DNA of 60,578 nt, counting the filler, from Dugesia japonica (taxonomy: Eukaryota): the NCBI GenBank assembly GCA_001938525.1. It is 5 parts of 5 records of this genome, joined end to end, with 100 filler letters (N's around TTAATTAATTAA, not from the genome) between each part and the next. Parts side by side here need not be neighbours in the genome. Positions count along the whole stretch, not along the records: positions 22,365 to 42,009 come from MQRL01610384.1; 4 more parts are not named here. One strand, 5' to 3'. The position numbers and the translations under genes are program-made. A model generated the notes under the pieces. It made no database searches and was not told the DNA's origin. It saw only the letters and a program-made list of their open reading frames with translations. Shown piece by piece: positions 6,120 to 60,578 of the stretch. Each line of letters starts with the position of its first letter. Within the stretch, counting starts at the first letter, position 1.

Positions 6120-7439
6120 AAAAGAATCATTTAAATAACGATTACTTATTTAAAAATTGAGTTAACAATTTCTATTAAATTATATTATTTATTATTAGAA
6201 AAGTAGCAATTTCATTTTTTGAAATAGACAATTTTATAATTAAAATGCTATATTAGTAATAATAAAATTGATTATTGTAAAAATTTTATTTTTTATACAT
6301 TTATTTTCTAATAAATTTTAATTATCGCTTTATTCATTGAAGAATTTCGACATTTTTCTATGATATATTTAATAATTATATCTTTTTTCTCTATTGTTTT
6401 TTGTCAATTACTCACAGATCAAATTATAATTTCACGNCCCCCTCCAAGTAAACTAGCAACAAATTCTGATGAAAGATAAGAAAAGAAATAATCAAGATAA
6501 AAAATTACAAAATGAAAAAAACTGTATTCCAAATTATGTAATTTTTTGTGACAAAAATCCAAATCAAAGATTTGTTGTGTAAAATTTAAATCATTAAAAT
6601 GATTTCCGGTGATATAATGACACAAACAGTTGGATGTAATTTTTAATTTGAAATTTTCTTTCTTGATTTTTAGATTTTTTTCATTTGATTAAAATCTAAT
6701 TTATTTTTTACAGTGAATAAAAAAATTTATTTATTTTTTTATTGGCTTTTTCTATTCTACTAAATTAAAATTTTTTCTTTTTAAAATTCATACTATCGTT
6801 TTTATAAAATTATTTTTTCAATTAATATCAAATCAAAAATTTATAATTCTAAATTTTATTTTTGAAATTNNNNNNNNNNNNNNNNNNNNNNNNNNNNNNN
6901 NNNNNNNNNNNNNNNNNNNNNNNNNNNNNNNNNNNNNNNNNNNNNNNNNNNNNNNNNNNNNNNNNNNNNNNNNTTTTAAATAATATGTTTTTGATAAAAT
7001 ATTTTTATCTTTTGTTTTTGAAAAGAATTACCACAAATAGCTTTATAATAATGAAAAAAAATAATTAATTATATTAATAAAAGTTTTTCTAGTGTTAAAT
7101 AATATATGTATATATAAAAACTAAAACAATGATTTTAGATTCTACTTATGACAATTTTTTATTATTATTATTTCTTGTATTAAATTTCTTTCAAAGCCCC
7201 ACAAAGAAACTTTGCACAGGGCCCCGCTTTTGTTCGGACTGGCCCTGATTGCAATATCTTTCATCCTTTATTATTTTAGTATGATAAATACAGGAAATAA
7301 TAAGCTTATTAATACAAGTATTTTTTGTACCATATTTAGTATGAACCTAATATTATATATTTTAAAGCGTTACCCTTAAATTAAACATGTTAAAAAAGTA
7401 ACCGTAATAAAACACATGTTAAAATTTTAATAAAAACAC

Positions 7440-8290
7440 TTTTATAAGAATTTATTTATTTTATTAGTATTTCTTCATGTTTTTTTCTATGTAGTGTAGA
7501 AATGTAGCCTGTTCCTAGTGTTTTCCATGTAANNNNNNNNNNNNNNNNNNNNNNNNNNNNNNNNNNNNNNNNNNNNNNNNNNNNNNNNNNNNNNNNNNNN
7601 NNNNNNNNNNNNNNNNNNNNNNNNNNNNNNNNNNNNNNNNNNNNNNNNNNNNNNNNNNNNNNNNNNNNNNNNNNNNNNNNNNNNNNNNNNNNNNNNNNNN
7701 NNNNNNNNNNNNNNNNNNNNNNNNNNNNNCCATCACAAATGATTCATTTGGGACCACAAAAATTTTGTCTTGGTTTCTGTAATTGGATGCACAAAGGTGC
7801 TTGTGGTTTGAAAATAATTCTTGAATTGTTTTTGAGTTTAGCATTTTTTTATTATATTCTGCATGATTTTAGCTATATTTCCATTAATAAAAGGTAGTTT
7901 AATAACTGTGTTTGTTTTTGGTTTGATTTTATTTTGTTTTGCATTTAAAGATAAATATTTCGATATAATTTTATTTGGATAGCCATTATTTAAAAATTTT
8001 TTGCAACTTGAGAGAGATCAATTTCATTTTTTCATTTGAAAATAGTCTCTCAGCTCGAATTCTTTCACCTTTAATTATACCAATTTTCTGGCTGATGGTA
8101 ATATTACTACTCCAAGGTAATATATGTCCACTGTGAAATGGTTTCATATATAATTGGGTAGTTAATATATCACCAAGTTTCTTTTGAATTAAAGTGTCCA
8201 GAAAAGGAATCTGAAAGTCAATTGATTTCGCCAAAGTGAATTTAATGTTATTATTAATACTGTTGGCTAGTTCTAGAAAGTGAGAGCGGC
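7440..8290 (-). mobile_element. Penelope-like retroelement fragment (RT thumb, linker, probable GIY-YIG remnant)
   Basis: NSINNNIKFT..IPFLDTLI..LTTQLYMKPFHSG..WSS..SQKIGIIKGERIRAERL...GYP...LPF is the typical PLE RT C-terminal pattern. Confidence 0.75.
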
Positions 8291-8539
8291 ATCAAAATTT
8301 CTCTTGAACAATTTAAAATTAAAAGCAATTTATCAATAGAAGCGTTGATTGAAATTGATTTTTCTAAAATAAAAATGTAAGATATTGCAGGTTTGTATAG
8401 GTTTATAAGACGAAATTGTTCATTAGCAATGAATGACCATCATTTAGACGATTGAAATAAAATTTTGGTAATAAATATATTATTTTTGTTTACTATTTCT
8501 TTATTGTTTTCCTATGATTATTTGAAATTCCATATATAT

Positions 8540-8641
8540 AGTAAAAAGACTTGTCAATAATATTAAGGATTTATTTAAGAATACTATAATTTGTATTATT
8601 CAAACAAAATTGACTGTTTACATAATCACTATTTTCTAACT
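8540..8641 (-). repeat. 3' LTR (102 bp) of the Gypsy element, preceded by PPT TTGAGAGGGA (8651-8642)
   Basis: About 90% identical to 11877-11977 by manual alignment (about 10 differences); AGT...ACT termini. Confidence 0.85.
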
Positions 8642-11600
8642 TCCCTCTCAATTGAAATTGAAACTCGTTTTAACCATTCAACTCGTTTTGACTTTGGTTT
8701 ATCTGTAAAATTCAGCAGGACTTGATGGGGACTTAAAAACCTAATAATCGTATACGGACCTTCATTATTGTCTCCACTTATATGAATATTACGAGGTTTC
8801 TTTTTTACAGGAATATTTTCACCAATGGCAAATTGCCCGTGACCTCTTGTATCTGATTCGTACTTTCTCATTTCCAACGCAACTTGTTTAAGTTCTACTT
8901 TTGTTTCATTAACCACTTGTTCATGATTATTGGGCTCATTTCTCGACAACCCATGTAACAGAATTTTTTGCCCACCTAGAACTTCAAATGGAGATCTCTT
9001 AATAGCGCTTTGATATGTTGTAAAAAATTGAAAATTCAATCTTGGGAATGTATTTACCCCAAGTAAATCTATTCTTATCACTATTCATTGAAGTGACTAA
9101 TATATCTCTGACTATTCTAATTACTCGCTCTGCTAGACCATCGGATTGATGTTGGTAAGGTGATGTAAGTTCTTGCGTAATTCCAAATCTTCCACACAAC
9201 AATCATTTTGCTACCTTCAAAAACTCTACCCGATCAGATAAGATTGATTTTGGTTTTACAAATCGGTAAATCCATTGGTTCTTTNTTGCATCTGATATTG
9301 CTGTTTCATCTTGTTTACTAAGAGGTATCTATCGAACTAGTTTGCTAAATTTATCGATAATAACAAAAACGTACTTTTGATTAAACTTATACTCAGAAAA
9401 ATAGGCCACATCTATTACAATTTGTTTTAGTGGTGCAAATTCATTTCTAGGTAACAATAGTTCTTTTGTTCGACCAGTGTAGACCTTTCTTTTAGCATAT
9501 ATTTTACATTTTTGAATTTCGTGTTCAATTTTTCTACTCAAATATTCCACTAACTTATTGCTTCCCAAATGACATAGTTCTTCGTGCAAGTATTTGACTA
9601 ATTTTAGTGAGTAATTTTCTGGTANATATATTAGTTTTTTTTCTTGATCATGTTTAATTATAATATTCCTAAATAATTTGAATTTATCTATACTTTTAAA
9701 ATGTTTGCTTTTTTTCACTTCAGTAGTTACATCATTATCCAAGCCTTGTATCCAGCATAATATTGATCTTAGTATACCCCATTTCTTTTGTAACTCTTCC
9801 ATATTTTCGTAATAAAATACATTTTCATTTACATTGTTTATAAATCTAACTTTAGATTTATTCCCTTTACCATAATCTAGTTAAACATTGACTACACATC
9901 GTTTCATTTATTCTGGACAGACCGTCAGCATTACTGTGATCTATTTCTTTCCAATATTCTAAATCAAAATTTAATCCAGAAAGATTAGCAAACCAAGTCT
10001 TAAACTGTGAACTAATTGATTTATTTGTTTTCTTCATATTAATCAAAGCTTTATGGTCAGTCCTTATTTTAAACTTTTCCCCAATTAAATAATGCGTAAA
10101 ATGCATAACAAATTCATGAATAACTAAAAGTTCTTTTCTGGTTACACAATATTCTTTCTCCTGAGAATTTAAAACTCTCGAAGCTAAATCTATGACTTTT
10201 TCATCATCTTTGTAGTCGTTTTGGTTTAGAACAGCTCCGATAGCTCCAAAATTTGCATCAGTGTCTAGAATCATTTCTTTTGATGGATCAGGAAATGCCA
10301 ATACTGGTGCTGTAGATAACTCATACTTAAACTTTTGGAAGCTACTTTCAGCATCTTTGGACCATTCAATTATTTTTTCATTGACTGATATCATTGAATA
10401 TAGTGGCTCAGTAATAATTGCAAAATCTTTGAAAAATTGACGATAATAATTACTTAGTCCCAAAAATGATCTTAACTGCGTAACACAACCTGGAGTTGAG
10501 GGTTCTGTAGTTTGTTTTATTTTAGCAGTTTTATTTTTATTTTTAACAGTTAGTTTAGAAAAAACACCTAACAATCTAACTTCTGATTTAATCATACTAG
10601 ATGCCCCAATTTGGATCCAATTTTCTTAACTCATCACTGCTATTGATGCACCAGAACCCCACAGAATTTCAATATCACAGCCATTACAATTTATAATACT
10701 CCATTGCCATCCGTCTATCTTCTGAAGCATTCTAAATTATTCATCATTCATTTCATCTTCCTATTTCCTATCTCTATTATTAATAAAGTTTATCGACTCA
10801 ATTCCACCGACGAGATAGCTGTTGGTAGAAGTTTATTTCCATTTCACTATCATCAATATTATAGATTTCATTAAAATTATTCATCTCGTTCACACTTTGC
10901 TCTTCGTCATGTATACATGATATTCTTCCATTTTGATGGCCATTAGTAACCAAATCTTTAAAATAATGACCATTTTTACCACAAATTAAGCATTTTTCTT
11001 CAGCGGACATTTATTTCGTCTATGATTCATATTACCGCAATAAAAGCATGTACTTTGTTGTAAAATTTCATCATGTGAAAGTGCTTTACCCCTGCACTGC
11101 TTGTAGAATTTCATTGCAATTATCTTCATTGATATTTGCGGTTTAAATTTCTATCTCAATCCTCATATGCAGTTGATTTTTCAGATTGATTTCTATTTCC
11201 TGAAGATTTAAAATATACTGAATTCCTTTGGTGCTCAAAATTAAATTCAAACGTTGATTATAATATCGAGGATTACTAATCCCTTACGAATATGTTGGTT
11301 TCATGACATAGACTTCCCGATGCGGAACCAATTTTTCTAAATTCTTTTCAAATTCTCTTCTTCTTTTGTCAAACATTGATGGGTCAAGGGCAAAGGATTC
11401 TCGCAGTTTCTCACTTTGTAATCCCTGCAGAATAAATGTTAATTTCTTTTGAAACACGCCTGTAACCATTTTTTAAACTCATATCTCAAATTTTCTGTAT
11501 TTCTTGTCTATTCTCTGTTTTATTAATGAAAATTCTTTGACTTCATGATAAATCGATTTTGTATTTGTAAAGGTTTTCATAAACCATTTTTCGACCTCCT

Positions 11601-17280: not shown

Positions 17281-17869
17281 ATTAAAACAAACATAAGCTT
17301 TTCAATAACCTTTCTATGAAGAAACTCAAAATTATTAATTTCATTTAATTTAAACAAATAATCATTTAATTTCGATTAATTTAAACAAAAATCAATAATT
17401 ACACTCAATTTAAACAAAAATAATTAATTTTACTTAATTTAAACAAGAAATCAACAATTTTACTACATTAAAACAAAATAAATAATTTCACCTCATTTAA
17501 ACAAAAAAAAGGGTGCCGTGCGGATCTATCAAAATAAAGTCTGGCCAATCAAATCGATGGAAACATGTGTGCGGCCAATCAAATTGAAGCCCCAAAAAAA
17601 ATTTTTAAATTTTTTTCAAAGCATGTGGAGCCGTGCGTAACTATCAAAAAAGTACGCGCGCGGACCTATTACAAAAAAAATGTGCCCGTGGTGACCTTTT
17701 GAGAAAATCAAAAAAAAGTCTAGCCAATCAAATCGATGGAAGCATGTGTGTGGTCAATCAAATTGAAGCCACAAAAAAATTTTTTTTTAATTTTTAAAAA
17801 AAATTGTAAAAAGGGGGTGGGGGTTGAGGCTTAAAAGCCTGTGGGGCCGTGGGGACCTATCTACCTACT
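17281..17869. mobile_element. Putative Polinton right terminal inverted repeat
   Basis: About 30-bp AATTTAAACAAA tandem array, duplicated CCAATCAAAT block, GGGGGTGG, ending CTATCTACCTACT; homologous to 51040-51339. Confidence 0.55.
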
Positions 17870-18912
17870 GGCGTTTAGATCTAGCTTTTCTGGCAGACAT
17901 CACATTTAAATTAAACGATTTAAACCTTGAATTGCAAGGCAAGGATAAATCGATATTTTAAATGATGAGTTCCATAAATGCCTATAAACAGAAGCTCATC
18001 CTCTTAGTAGGTAAACTTTAAAAAAACAACTTGACTTATTTTCCAAATTTGATCGCACAGCTAAACAGTTCTGCTGCAACAAAGTACGATGCAAACAGAT
18101 ACATAACTGAAATAAAAAAAATCAATACAGAGTTTGATAGACGTTTTCAGGATTTCAAAAAACTCGACGGAGTGATCTTATTTATAACCAATCAATTTGC
18201 AACAGACATTCAGGTAGAAGAAACTGCAGAAAAACTTTCATTGCTATTTGAAATGGATATTGAAAACCTGGAAACAGAAGTAATTCATCTACAAAACGAT
18301 GTTCTTATTAAATCAAGAGCATTTGAGGGAAATATTTGGAAATATGTATCGGCAGAAAAGTTTCCATCCTTGCAAAAATGTTCTGAAAAATTGCATGCAT
18401 GTTTTGGATCAACTTTTATATGTGAATCAGCATTTTCGCAACTAAAAAGAATCAAAACAAATAATCGCAATAACTTAACGGATGAACACTTGGACGCATG
18501 TATAAGTGTTCATCTTGTATTACTACAAGAAATTGTATTACTACATATACCCCAAACTACAAAAGAATAGTATATGAAATGCAATGTAGAACATCAAACG
18601 CACCAGGATTTTCAAAATAAATTCAAACGAAACTCTTAAATAGTTTTAGGTAAAACCTTAGGTTTCAGATAGAAAACACATATGTTTCACAGTAAGCCAT
18701 ATTATTGGCCAACTAATCAATATTGAAACATTCTTAAGACATGTGGTATCCATCAAACATACGACAGTAACTGAAATAAAATAAGATTAAATTAAAATAA
18801 TTTTGTTTTATTTCATTATTATCACATATATACCGATAATTCATTCCAGTCGATCGCAATTGCTTTAATGTATCAAAAGTAGCTCTGTTGAAAAAAATAG
18901 TGGGCATCACTG
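17869..18912 (+). mobile_element. hAT (SPIN/Charlie/GTF2IRD2-like) transposase 3' half plus right TIR
   Basis: WRLDLAFLADITFKLNDLNLELQGK ... FPSL..FGSTFICESAFSQLKRIKTNNRNNLTDEHL; ends AAAAAATAGTGGGCATCACTG. Confidence 0.85.
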
Positions 18913-27245: not shown

Positions 27246-27534
27246 AAATTGGATTCTGAAATTAAATGAACTCTCGTAAGTTAAAACTAAATTTTATACA
27301 TTTTTTCTATTTATAAAATTCAAGTTTAAATTAATTTTTCAAATTTATCTAGTAAGAATTATTTTTTTTTCCACATAAATTATTTGACATTTCCAATATC
27401 TTATTATTTCATTTTTCAGTGACAGAATATGAAATATTAAAAAGATTTATCCGCTCTCAAGAATAGATTAAACATTCATTAAAATTTAAATTTTTAAAAT
27501 ATAAATTTATTAAAAATATGTTACATAACGTTAC

Positions 27535-27715
27535 TTGATTATTAGAGTATGCCCAAGAACCGAAAGATAATCTGCATATTTGATCATCAAATGGAAAATA
27601 GGAAATATCCAATCGACACGAACTTCGCATTGTTACAATTGGTTTCCATGACAATTGTCCACCACTATTAATAGTTACAAGGGATTTATGATATTCTGTA
27701 AATTTTTCTTGAACA
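27535..27715 (-). CDS. Nicotinic acetylcholine receptor subunit, Cys-loop exon (181 nt)
   Basis: TTTTCAG acceptor and GTAACG donor; encodes (S)VQEKFTEYHKSLVTINSGGQLSWKPIVTMRSSCRLDISYFPFDDQICRLSFGSWAYSNNQ with C-x13-C and loop B GSW. Confidence 0.95.
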
Positions 27716-27749
27716 CTGAAAATGATATATTATTATTATTATTTTTATT

Positions 27750-27800
<51 letters not shown>

Positions 27801-27850
27801 NNNNNNNNNNNNNNNNNNNNNNNNNNNNNNNNNNNNNNNNNNNNNNNNNN

Positions 27851-27898
<48 letters not shown>

Positions 27899-27904
27899 GT
27901 ATGA

Positions 27905-28132
27905 TTATTCATTTAAAAAACAAGCTTCGATCAAAATTTGTTTATTTTGTTTTTGATAATAATTATTAATTATAAAGTCAATTCCTGATGAAGACAAAGT
28001 CGAAATATAGAACTATTATCAAAAGCCAAAGAAAAACAAATTTTGATCGAAGCTTTTAGTTTAATGAATTCTGAAAAACGATCAATGGTTACGTCCAGCA
28101 ATTATTCTCGCAATAATTGCAATTGTAAACAA
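27905..28132 (+). mobile_element. Short non-autonomous Penelope-type repeat (pseudo-LTR plus inverted partial copy), copy 1
   Basis: Inverted arms AAGCTTCGATCAAAATTTG / CAAATTTTGATCGAAGCTT; 28037-28130 matches the reverse complement of 37793-37886. Confidence 0.65.
27978..28015 (+). ncRNA. Minimal type I hammerhead ribozyme motif
   Basis: TCAATTC-CTGATGA-A-GAC-AAA-GTC-GAAA-T-ATA-GAA: intact core, 3-bp stem II, palindromic AUAU stem III, short stem I (TTC/GAA). Confidence 0.6.
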
Positions 28133-28508
28133 TTATGATTATTATTATTATTATTTAATTAGAATTTTTGGCGATAAAGTTTTTTCTGATATAAATAGCT
28201 TTAAAACTAATCATCATTAAATTGAAGCATAATAATTTTTCTTTTCAGACTTAATATTTTAAAATCAAACATTTATAATAATGTGAACATTTTCTTTTTC
28301 CGATTGTTTATTAATCAAATTTGGGAGCGTTATTGTATTAAATTAAATTTTCTGGTTCAGAATAATTATTTTCAATTTACTTTAAATTCAGCATTATTAA
28401 AAATATTTTAATTTAAATTTATTTTAACAAAAATTATATGGAATTTAATTATCGAATATTGATGTTTTCAGAAATAAATTAAAAATAGCTTCTTCCAATT
28501 CTACATAT

Positions 28509-29894: not shown

Positions 29895-30004
29895 CTATTA
29901 AACAGGACAATATCTGGTAACCATATTTTGTTGCATGGAATTCTCAATTTGCTGACAAGTTCGTATTCACTAGTATTCCATGATAACCTTTTATCTGTCC
30001 ATTC
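29895..30004 (-). CDS. nAChR subunit exon (110 nt, loop A)
   Basis: TTTAG acceptor and GTTAAT donor; encodes [37 protein letters not shown]. Length and phase are typical of nAChR genes. Confidence 0.95.
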
Positions 30005-37510: not shown

Positions 37511-37792
37511 TAAAGGTCAATTGCTGAGTTGTTTAGTGTGAATTTTCATTAATTAAGATGTCCGTATAATCCTCATCATAGTTTTACTGTTTTCCTGTAA
37601 GTTTGAATAGTTTATGGAAAAAATTGAAATTATCACCAAATTCAAAATTTCTAAAATAATATATTAAACTATAGTATGCTATTAAGACAACTTTAATACA
37701 CAATATTTAATATACCTAACAATATTTAAAGATTTAAAATCAGAAAGTCTATATATCCATTTAAAAAAAACATTCAATCAATTTCTTTTTGT

Positions 37793-38030
37793 TTTACAAT
37801 TGCAATTATTGCGACAATAATTGTTGGACATAACCATTGGTCGTTTTTCAGAATTCATTTAAAATAAAAGCTTCGATCAAAATTTGATTTTTTTTTGGTA
37901 TTTGATAACAAATCGATATTTCGATTTTGTCTTCTTCAGGAATTGACTTTCTTCAATTCCTGAAGAAGACAAAATCGAAATATCAAATACCAAAAAAAAA
38001 CAAAATTTTGATAAAAGCTTTTATTTTAAA
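37793..38030 (-). mobile_element. Short Penelope-type repeat, copy 2, forming a long palindrome with two back-to-back hammerhead cores
   Basis: Perfect 32-bp inverted repeat 37915-37946 / 37953-37984 with a 6-nt spacer and longer imperfect arms; homologous to 27905-28132. Confidence 0.7.
37909..37946 (-). ncRNA. Minimal type I hammerhead ribozyme motif
   Basis: Minus strand reads TCAATTC-CTGAAGA-A-GAC-AAA-ATC-GAAA-T-ATC-GATTTG: CUGANGA/GAAA core, AUC cleavage triplet, stem I CAAUUC/GAUUUG. One mismatch each in stems I and II. Confidence 0.5.
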
Positions 38031-39821
38031 TCAATTTATTTTTATTGCAATTTTAAAATTGTAAATTTTTCAAGTTAAAAAAATTTTAATTTATCTGAGA
38101 AAACGACTTACGAAAATTTATATTCAATAGTTAAATCAACATTTATCAATCATTTTCAATAAAAAATATTTTCCTAAAATTTAACTCATTTCTTATTATT
38201 TTTTTTAATATTTAATTTATCTTAATATTCATATTTAATTTTTTCTCGGAAATTGAAATATTTTAGAATACACCTTTTTATTTATTTTATCTTTGTACTT
38301 TAATTATTTATTTAATAAATTCAAATTAACCATTTATTTATTCCTCATAAAATTTATGCCAATTAACTCAATATCATTATACGGATTTATTCGTTTTATA
38401 ATAATAAATTTCGGAGTATTTAAACAGACGTAAATAATAATAATAATAATAATAACAAATTAAATAATTATTTACAAAGAACTAGAAAATTAGAGAATTT
38501 GAAAAAATATGTCTCTAAAGTTTATTCATTTTGTAATTTTTAATAAATATTTATTGAATTTACTTTTTAATTTGTAAATTTTCCTAAGGAGTATTAGGAT
38601 CCCAATGATAACTAGAATGATAAACGAAATTAATCGAATACGAATCAATTATTATTAAAATTTATTCATAAAATTAAATAATTAATTCTTCTAAAGTGAA
38701 TTCGTATTTTTGAATTGGAAGTCTTTATTTTTCACAAGCTAATAATTTTTATCTATACACAAATTAAATAAAATCCCTTAAATTTATAAATAAAAAATTA
38801 TACAATAATAAATTAATTTTATTATAAGCAAATTAAAATAATTAATAGTTGGATTTGTTATTGCACTACAATTGTTATTTAAATAAATATAAATAAACAA
38901 TGCTTATACCAAACTAAATAAAATCAATTTTATTNNNNNNNNNNNNNNNNNNNNNNNNNNNNNNNNNNNNNNNNNNNNNNNNNNNNNNNNNNNNNNNNNN
39001 NNNNNNNNNNNNNNNNNNNNNNNNNNNNNNNNNNNNNNNNNNNNNNNNNNNNNNNNNNNNNNNNNNNNNNNNNNNNNNNNNNNATATCTAAATAATATTT
39101 ATTAATAACATCCACTGCAATCGACACATGATTGTCAACTGGAAGCAAGTTGATTTATTTCAATAGTGTCCTGATTTCAATAAACTATCAGAAGGCATTT
39201 TCAGCAGCACATTAGTTGTTAAAAATGTTACCTTGCAGGAAGAGCTCAAAATGTTTATAAATGACAATTGGCAAGTGAGAGGTGAGTATGGTGAACGCTG
39301 CAAAATTTCGTACCCCAAACACATACAAATTTCCTATCATAATGTATGCAACGTGTGATTGTAGATTGCCATGAAGAATAATAGGACCTACTCAGTTGAT
39401 CAATGTCAGACGAAATTGATTCATTTTTTAGGGCATCTTATTGATTTAAATTTAAATTTATCATTTAAATTTTAAAAAATCTCTTTTTAATTGATTGTTT
39501 TTCAGTGGCAGTAAGTCAAAAAATGAGCGTTGTTTGGTAGTCTTTAAGTGATGGGTATTCCAATTGGATATGCANNNNNNNNNNNNNNNNNNNNNNNNNN
39601 NNNNNNNNNNNNNNNNNNNNNNNNNNNNNNNNNNNNNNNNNNNNNNNNNNNNNTTATCTGACTTGCAAGATAGTCTTTGTTTATCTTGGCGCATTTTGCG
39701 TTTAGTTCGATGTTATTAATTTTGAAATAGTATTTTTTTTGAATATTTTTATTGTTTAAATTGTAAAATAAAATTTTTAACGTAATTTTTATAGCTAATA
39801 ACGGTGATAAAAAAATATTAC

Positions 39822-51039: not shown

Positions 51040-51339
51040 ATGAAAAAATTCAAAAATTATTGATTTCATTAAATTTAAACAAATAATCATTTAATTTCGA
51101 TTAATTTAAACAAAGAATCACTAATTTCATTAATTTAAACGAAAAAACAATAATTTCCTTCAATTTAAACAAAATTAATGACTTTAACTTAATTTAAACA
51201 AAAAATCGATAATTTTACTTCATTTAAATAAAATAAATAATTTCACCTCATTTAAACAAAGAAAAATGAAAAAAAATCGGGTGACAAAAAAAAATTTCCC
51301 TGGGGGGTGGTTGTTCTCGTGCGCTTCTATCCATCTACT
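51040..51339. mobile_element. Putative Polinton right terminal repeat (shorter variant)
   Basis: AATTTAAACAAA array alignable with 17325-17510, then GGGGGGTGG...GCGCTTCTATCCATCTACT. Confidence 0.55.
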
Positions 51340-59210: not shown

Positions 59211-60578
59211 CAAGGACGGATCCACAAGGGGGCGATCGCCCCCCCATAGCCGAATTTTCATAAAGCTTTATAATGATAAGGAACGACTACTCATATGAAT
59301 ATTTGAATGGTAGCATGAAAAAGCAAAGAAGAAATGAAAAATTAAAAACAATTTTGTATCTAAAAATCAAAACAAACATGAGAAAAATAATTGTAAAAGT
59401 ACTAAATGCTAAAAAAGATAAATTAAATAAATTTTATAATAAATAAATTTAATTAATTAATTGAATAAATTATTTAAATAAATAGATTCATTTAAATAAA
59501 TTAATTTAAATCATTACAAATAATTTTTAAGGTATAATTATTTAATTATTATAAATATATCAGAATTTGTGATTTTTTTTAGAAATCAAACGATCAATGC
59601 AAACGCCGATTTTACAATTTTTAAAAAAAACAAAATCAAGATAACATTACAGAATCAAAAAATATAAAACCAGTAGAAGCACTTTTGCCTGAAGAAATAT
59701 TTTCTTTCCCTCCATCACTATCGCTATCGACATTATCATCGTCATCTTGCGATTCAAAAGACATTGGTAATTTTATAGAAAGGCTAGACGACATCACCAA
59801 ATATATTATCATTAAAAATTTTTAGCAGTCACTTTCAGCTTTCAAATTTCCATTTTCTGTTCACCAAAAGTGTAAGATTGAAGAAAAGAAGTGAACTCAC
59901 CATAATCATCTTTTAAATCATAAATGGCTTGTATATTCTGATATTTATAAATGTCTCTTCTGCAAATATTTTGTACTATATGCTGAATTTTGTGTTGCTA
60001 ATAGAAAAATTAAAGTGGAAAAGTTTATAACAAAACCTTTGACAAAGTTTGCAAAATTATAAGGAAAGATTGGTGAATTTTAATTACACAAAACTCTGTA
60101 ACTGCACCTTCTAGGTTTTGTCAAGTTTTTAGTGATCTTTCGAAATCGATTACAAATTTAATTAATTCTAATAGATAAAAAATATATAAAGATAATCGCG
60201 AACGGTTGACATCTTTTATTAAAACTATTCTTCTCATGGACGACCAAAATATAGCTTTTCGTGGTAGACGTGATGATGGAAAAATTGATGATAAAAAAGA
60301 TAACGAAAATCCATTGAAAAATGAAGGAAATTTCAAAGAACTGTTAAAATATCAGGTTGATGCTGGTGACACTGTTCTTGAAGCTCATTTGAAAAATTCA
60401 AATTCGAATGCCACTTATATAAGTAAGACCACACAAAGTCAATTAATTGAGGCATGTGTAGACGTCATCAAACAAACTAAGGCGTAAAAAGTATATGCTG
60501 TCCTCTGTCCTTGTTACAACCATAGTTTAAATTTTTCGATTTCGATATCATCAAATGTCACAAGTATTCGAAATTCGA
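59211..60578 (+). mobile_element. hAT-Tip100/THAP12(PRKRIR)-like element, left end plus decayed transposase, running off the window
   Basis: Terminus CAAGGACGGATCCACAAGGGGGCGATCGCCCCCC; KWLVYS...LFCKY; QNIAFRGRRD...GNFKELL...L.AHL.....ATYISKTTQSQLI (DUF4371); CYNHSLN. Confidence 0.85.

Follow-up and report, generated by a model that had tools for sequence, protein, structure and literature searches.

A hammerhead-bearing repeat family of the planarian Dugesia japonica as a probable leader stub of a Penelope-like element

The closest described counterparts of the locus analyzed here are the minimal hammerheads of Penelope-like elements (PLEs; PMC4209133), the insertion units of EN+ PLEs (Adineta Pen2a, PMC3846280; Craig et al. 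2021, PMC8557442), the Poseidon element of Anolis (PAc; Frangieh et al. 2024, PMC11167929) and the animal non-LTR retrozymes (PMC7229834; bioRxiv 10.64898/2026.07.22.740005); all but the first are cited for the available portions of these sources. According to those portions, a pLTR is combined in published PLE insertions with an inverted truncated copy and with a tail on one side (PMC8557442), and in Adineta Pen2a the pLTR and tail cover 22 ORF amino acids and are accompanied by an inverted pLTR and a 9-bp target-site duplication (PMC3846280). In the anole, the PLE enzyme was found to cut at ATT, to begin reverse transcription 111-118 nt into the ORF and to use uncleaved RNA, and hammerhead cleavage was dispensable in vitro (PMC11167929); the function of PLE hammerheads has been called unclear (PMC8557442).

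We analyzed a window of 60,578 nucleotides (the whole stretch of D. japonica DNA under study, assembly GCA_001938525.1, filler included) that contains two copies of a hammerhead-bearing repeat. In our assessment, copy A is quite probably the leader of an EN+ PLE, consisting of a pLTR with a minimal hammerhead and the likely first 22 codons of the ORF, placed head-to-head with a truncated mirror copy, the whole being flanked by target duplications, and likely formed when the element's own enzyme primed within the beginning of the ORF and extended the copy no further than the 5' end of the RNA. The layout of such a stub is already known in other animals; the family is ordinary, yet new. Copy A is organized as follows.

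27728-27899, unstranded: (ATT)n microsatellite containing an assembly gap, into which copy A inserted
27900-27909, + strand: left target-site duplication, 10 bp, ending in ATT and overlapping the inverted arm by 3 bases (exact direct repeat)
27907-27964, − strand: inverted 5'-truncated copy of 28011-28069 (mirror arm), ending 1 base from the predicted cut site
27965-27973, unstranded: stretch of 9 bases separating the arm from the sense unit, specific to copy A by the drop in depth (filler or remnant)
27974-28131, + strand: constant 158-bp sense unit, pLTR with hammerhead followed by the tail (5' border, depth, copy B)
28070-28131, + strand: one-sided tail of about 62 bp, lying beyond where the mirror arm ends and containing a 9-bp hairpin (folding, alignment)
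28134-28143, + strand: right target-site duplication, exact 10-bp repeat of the left one

The inverted arms (36 nt, 86% alike) form a single long hairpin when folded (z = −6.6, a stability that none of 200 shuffles matched), and (TTA)n arrays lie on the flanks, so that both of these features, which an earlier note on this DNA had described, were borne out. An exact 10-bp duplication was reached by 0.5% of 1500 random position pairs, a null that is not microsatellite-matched; the 10-mer itself occurs 7 times in the window, and copy A sits in simple repeat. The second copy lies outside any microsatellite.

37790-38033, − strand: copy B, with the sense unit at 37950-37790 and a mirror arm from 37953 to about 38036 that includes an antisense hammerhead
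38043-38029 and 37790-37776, − strand: duplication flanking copy B, 15 bp with 1 mismatch

Copy B was found at E 4e-59, and its sense unit is 90% identical to that of copy A over 158 columns; a duplication as good as its 15 bp with one mismatch arises in only 0.07% of 1500 random position pairs. An inverted truncated pLTR, a one-sided tail and a target duplication are present in both copies, and both duplications end in ATT, one of the two window copies being inside an ATT array, a kind of repeat that makes up 0.9% of the bases here. The length of the mirror arm, by contrast, differs, from 58 bp in copy A to about 84 bp in copy B, with further end points in contigs at 27975, 27991, 28039, 28053 and 28060; in 164 and 186 contigs, the arm runs on into the antisense hammerhead. 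Because the longer arm of copy B includes this antisense hammerhead, the copy folds back almost entirely (z = −16) and its ribozyme is predicted to be fully blocked by its own fold-back. A weak blast match at 6975-7030 was rejected as a further copy when it disappeared with the sense unit alone as the query. As a separate observation, copy A has a mirror arm that ends 1 base away from where the cut is predicted (27964 / 28011), and the arm of copy B contains an 11-base deletion whose start coincides with the cut site and falls in a microhomology of 4 bases; these are two cases only and may be due to chance.

In its head-to-head arrangement, its one-sided tail, the 22 ORF codons in pLTR plus tail and the target duplications (10-15 bp in the window copies), this structure agrees with the EN+ PLE insertion unit as described in the available parts of PMC3846280 and PMC8557442, and it differs from that unit in that the copies lack an ORF body between the repeats and that the pLTR part of the sense unit is only about 96 bp. 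With PAc, as far as the available part of PMC11167929 describes it, the family shares a tail made of ORF-start sequence, a target ending in ATT, inserted copies that keep an uncut hammerhead and the lack of RNA reads ending at the cut site; the PAc ORF, however, begins inside the hammerhead, whereas in copy A the ATG lies 55 nt past the cut site.

The hammerhead of copy A is real as a sequence motif, and self-cutting is predicted. Each of the motif parts named in the earlier note is present at its place on the + strand.

27980-28014, + strand: minimal type I hammerhead of copy A (descriptor match; cleavage is a prediction only)
27982-27984, + strand: TTC
27985-27991, + strand: CTGATGA
27992, + strand: extra A between 9 and 10.1
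27993-27995, + strand: GAC
27996-27998, + strand: loop AAA
27999-28001, + strand: GTC
28002-28005, + strand: GAAA
28006-28007, + strand: TA
28008-28009, + strand: U16.1-A17
28010-28012, + strand: GAA

On both strands of the window, this hammerhead was the sole match to a type I descriptor; among 500 dinucleotide-shuffled windows, 4 had any match and none had one with a palindromic stem III. The predicted cut falls between 28009 and 28010. The motif has the PLE minimal core (CUGANGA / GAAA / UH) in type I order and shares with the PLE minimal hammerheads of PMC4209133 the unpaired base between 9 and 10.1 (A27992), the G10.1-C11.1 pair (G27993-C28001), a palindromic 15.2-16.2 (UA in copy A, AU in about 13% of the depth), a stem I of 4-5 bp in the family, and the occurrence mostly as single dispersed copies with some pairs on opposite strands. 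Its assignment to the minimal type I hammerheads of PLE pLTRs, made in the earlier note, is thus supported in all listed traits. The differences are in the stems: the Schistosoma and Drosophila examples have a stem II of 6-8 bp as opposed to 3 bp in copy A and 2 bp in copy B, and in stem III, the AUAU palindrome, there is the 2-nt insertion known from the Drosophila/rotifer/shrimp variant instead of no insertion. The compactness of the motif stressed in the earlier note does not set it apart, given that related PLEs elsewhere share the 3-bp stem II and the 2-nt palindrome, and that stem I is 5 bp in the family majority, in which position 28013 is occupied by T (98% of the depth), and was shortened in copy A. 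The stem I of copy A has 3 bp, with pairing probabilities under 0.13 in folding calculations. Because the active dimer of copy A is computed at +2.8 kcal/mol as against −8.1 for the best dimer fold, ribozyme activity of this particular copy appears doubtful. Rfam gave 0 matches at the gathering score and no hammerhead family at any threshold tried over the whole window, and two chance matches only (E 0.94 and 3) with the local sequence; this silence is expected because the hammerhead variant is so short. The exact 29-base pattern yielded 0 matches in metagenome contigs; the 120 loci that a 16-base pattern retrieved from viral contigs were dismissed as chance, as none closes stem II and none matches past 35 bases. 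Our literature search found no paper on this hammerhead family; the supplements of PMC4209133 and PMC8557442 and Repbase, which were outside its scope, may list it.

To survey the family, public DNA runs (X1 among them) and RNA runs X21, X22 and X23, all under the same species label, were aligned to the window copy. At 80% likeness, 21,218 and 22,011 contigs of two runs map to 27900-28480, and 4,149 contigs of DNA run X1 cover the 63-base hammerhead stretch, in support of the large dispersed family that had been proposed. Contig depth is 0.1-2.2 million within the element compared to near 10, the single-copy level, to the right of 28139; the depth summed over contigs reaches 0.7-0.8 million across the core as opposed to about 10 in the flank. 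Although neither a copy number nor a count of molecules, it suggests thousands of copies once an approximately 30-fold overcount is allowed for. GC content is 16-31%. To the left of 27974, depth drops by more than tenfold, and unrelated sequence precedes this position in 235 of 445 reads of X22, 207 of 357 reads of X23 and 343 of the 4149 X1 contigs, being AT-rich in the reads of both RNA runs. Because this 5' border is sharp and the mirror arm is variable, the constant unit is the 158-bp segment, and the size of 230 bp is particular to the insertion of copy A.

These borders bear directly on the suggestion, made in the earlier note, that the locus is a retrozyme-like unit of about 230 bp, with tandem monomers being transcribed, cut by paired hammerheads, circularized and re-inserted. 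Such an origin would account for the type I hammerhead with a palindromic stem III and for a size within the 170-400 nt range of animal retrozymes (available part of PMC7229834), a derivation of retrozymes from pLTRs has been argued (available part of bioRxiv 10.64898/2026.07.22.740005), and a back-joint from 28008 to 27974 occurs in one of 4149 X1 contigs, among the joints listed. Like the animal non-LTR retrozymes in the available parts of these two sources, the unit is short, non-coding and PLE-related. These retrozymes, however, are marked by tandem repeats with hammerheads that are mostly canonical and by plentiful circular RNA; none of this was seen here, in RNA libraries made with oligo-dT, which do not sample circles. 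There is no tandem unit anywhere in the window; the sequence before 27974 is heterogeneous and does not correspond to the unit's own 3' end (agreement 0.44-0.46); and head-to-head joints (27974/27974 in 17 X1 contigs, among the joints listed) dominate over head-to-tail ones. Reads in X22 number 445 of 13.6 million, from libraries that would miss circles. A retrozyme origin appears very improbable, and the unit of constant size without tandem arrays departs from the one initially proposed.

The pattern of variation is compatible with a hammerhead that has been maintained. Among the rows listed for X1, more than 10% of the depth is variant at 5 of the 39 positions of 27974-28012, namely N7, one loop 2 base, 15.2, 16.2 and N17, all of which are free in a hammerhead, whereas the core and paired bases vary by 4% or less. 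Specifically, N7 is C in 76% and A in 18%, the loop 2 variant base accounts for 19%, and N17 includes C at 22.5%, U at 3.6% and G at only 0.6%. The extra A27992 and the G10.1-C11.1 pair show variants under 3% across the family, and N7 and N17 are the sole core positions at which copies A and B differ. The variants at 15.2 and 16.2 (13.3% and 13.9%) change AUAU to AAUU, keeping the palindrome; from these equal shares, we infer a paired swap on one molecule, and this UA-to-AU swap may represent one ancestral event. That all five variable positions fall among the 14 classed as free has a hypergeometric p of 0.003, or 0.01 with the paired swap taken as one; alignment of reads to one copy under-counts variants at any position. 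Downstream, at 28015-28098, many variants exceed 10%, among the rows listed. Accordingly, the core is better conserved than either the free positions or the downstream sequence, the opposite of what the earlier note had named as grounds for abandoning the ribozyme interpretation.

The connection to a parent element comes from the tail of the unit and from a second fragment in the window.

28064-28132, + strand: open frame of 23 codons from ATG that matches the N-terminus of the PLE protein P0001 (14 of 19 identical)
7459-8276, − strand: decayed PLE 3' part (RT thumb, linker, endonuclease end) of the same or a sister family, in four pieces with 73-92% amino acid identity to P0001, with frameshifts, a stop and an assembly gap

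The tail peptides of copies A and B match the first 19-20 residues of P0001 with 46.9 and 45.6 bits, compared to a maximum of 30.3 bits for 300 shuffled queries, and both copies keep an open ORF start. The link to a PLE ORF that the earlier note had proposed to look for is thus in place: by this match of 18-19 residues, the tail likely corresponds to the first 22 codons of a P0001-like ORF. P0001 has 843 amino acids with an RT plus, at the C-terminus, a GIY-YIG (Pfam RVT_1, 29.6 bits, at the cut-off; GIY-YIG, 21.6 bits, just below the cut-off of 22.6), an architecture shared by its Atlas neighbours. In the decayed fragment, the stop-free frame 7986-8291 resembled a PLE RT thumb and had no Pfam match. 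A search of viral contigs with P0001 gave no match. We infer that the hammerhead would be contiguous with the full ORF in the parent; direct adjacency of pLTR and ORF is seen only in more distant loci. There, the descriptor matches on the coding strand in 4 of 26 related metagenome loci, compared to 1 of 1040 shuffles, and unfiltered inspection of 15 of the 26 behind the ORF or match end showed a complete hammerhead in L121, L124, L128 and L131, located 24-33 nt after the stop, with stems that are different but paired; L121 and L124 are close kin. The 15.2-16.2 palindromes of these loci are CG, AU and CCG. In L128, at about 1978-2010, the three bases CCG lie between 15.1 and 16.1, and a dimer would pair around a central C-C mismatch.

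A proposal that the UGA of the hammerhead core serves as the ORF stop codon, as the frame 27965-27988 ends in NS-stop like P0001, was abandoned, since its first three residues fall beyond the family border and since the related loci have 24-33 nt between stop and core; the likeness is probably due to chance. As for the affiliation of the parent, P0001 has the DKT motif and the CxCX5C linker, marks of the Hydra clade, yet keeps the CCHH endonuclease motif that is absent from that clade; this Cys-rich linker also sets it apart from Penelope/Poseidon, which lack one. The linker finger is CX2-3CxxC in its relatives P0008-P0011 and a shortened form in P0001, to be compared with CX2-5CxxC plus CCHH in Nematis/Neptune. 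P0001 and its relatives P0004-P0012 form a PLE group with DKT, with the CxCX5C linker in P0001 and P0004-P0006, in which CCHH is nonetheless present. To judge from these motifs, the group could possibly be a link between the Hydra and Nematis clades.

Taken together, the fixed 5' border, the variable arm, the one-sided tail, the ATT-ended duplications, the tail peptide and the restriction of variation to tolerated positions lead to the interpretation of the family as leader stubs. Under this model, the PLE enzyme would prime reverse transcription at about codon 22 of its own ORF, run-off at the RNA 5' end would yield the 158-bp leader copy, and a second truncated copy would be joined to it head-to-head, with the hammerhead being kept by selection in the parent elements. 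The length of the tail, about 62 bp as opposed to the published 30-40 bp, counts against this model.

A fixed 5' border in most copies, furthermore, is also expected from a short non-autonomous master. In that alternative, the 158-bp unit is a true non-autonomous element, whose short masters, holding the enzyme binding and priming site, are transcribed and re-copied in trans by the PLE enzyme in a SINE-like manner. The sharp 5' border in about half of the RNA reads could be read in this way, as could the very high abundance compared to one decayed ORF fragment in the window and the existence of several subfamily-level variants, and pLTR sequences can act in cis for trans-mobilization (available part of PMC3846280). 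However, run-off at the 5' end of a full-length mRNA gives an identical border, the start of the ORF is uninterrupted in either copy, and the minimum template of the anole enzyme, albeit from another clade, needs 172 nt of ORF (available part of PMC11167929) compared to 69 nt here. The RNA reads also argue against short masters, being mostly inside unlike sequence, on both strands and without end pile-ups. Reads on the hammerhead stretch number 445 of 13.6 million in X22 and 357 of 13.2 million in X23, in both orientations (181/264 and 162/195 first/second mates), and 85-88% of them run on into unlike sequence; no pile-up of read beginnings or ends was seen in X21, X22 or X23, whose oligo-dT libraries are poorly suited to show one. 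These reads fit passengers in host transcripts; their bearing on circles is weak because oligo-dT libraries miss these. All considered, we regard an origin from a non-autonomous element as unlikely and the leader stub as the better explanation. As a side observation, the ATG variant that matches the start of P0001 (28076-28078) occurs in about 11% of X22 RNA reads (28078 G: 107/979) and in 0.4% of X1 contig depth, measures that are not strictly comparable; it may mark a transcribed subfamily.

Copy A lies within a gene, and its neighbourhood allows a further alternative to be weighed.

27484-27695, − strand: nAChR-type Cys-loop exon downstream of the host intron, with putative limits
29895-30001, − strand: nAChR-type exon lying upstream (by motif match only), so that copy A falls within the intron

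The neighbouring nAChR exon proposed earlier is borne out by Pfam (Neur_chan_LBD, E 3e-17) and by the best PDB match (nAChR alpha-9, E 4e-13); a homologue search with this exon gave no match. Its acceptor is indeed close by, but the distance of about 260 bp given at first has to be corrected: the nearest likely acceptor AG, at 27696-97, is separated by 211 bp from the edge of the element and by 289 bp from C3, with an assembly gap in between. Copy A is intronic because the second nAChR-type exon lies at about 29895-30001, and because the gene is on the − strand, the hammerhead of copy A, on the + strand, is antisense to the nAChR pre-mRNA. Retention of copy A by the host to regulate the nAChR gene, through intron cleavage or a hairpin, would be in line with this position about 210 bp from the acceptor and with arms that would fold in the pre-mRNA, but the hammerhead sits on the opposite strand, the CTGANGA core is absent from the pre-mRNA strand, stem I is shortened by one of the changes private to copy A, and with thousands of copies intronic insertions are expected anyway. 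Such a regulatory role is scarcely credible. In the same intron, at 28380-28439, there is a second repeat of lower copy number (depth 140-690 compared to about 10).

Other features of the window include broken pieces of an LTR retrotransposon at 8629-10625 on the − strand, with an RNase H-like domain (E 4e-27), adjoining the decayed PLE fragment, hAT transposase remnants on the + strand at 18022-18570 and 60179-60487 (Dimer_Tnp_hAT, E 2e-8; DUF4371, weak), and two arrays of a similar 29-30 bp minisatellite at 17328-17507 and 51052-51269. The segment 688-1292 on the − strand contains what we take to be Arf1-like GTPase exons.

A more speculative extension, which we consider decidedly unlikely, is that the stubs are a self-renewing SINE-like parasite of the PLE, a 158-nt leader with a start site, a ribozyme and a priming site that is copied anew in trans, with a mirror arm that in some cases ends at the ribozyme cut, as in copy A, where it is 1 base off. 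If this were true, and if arm ends piled up at the cut genome-wide, the thousands of copies would be a fossil record of in vivo hammerhead cutting during insertion, something that in vitro experiments did not demonstrate. Since the family numbers thousands of copies, with borders that are fixed and target duplications that are clear, and has a candidate intact parent ORF, one can tally the stops of its mirror arms and ask whether any insert starts at the cut site, which bears on the role of PLE hammerheads.
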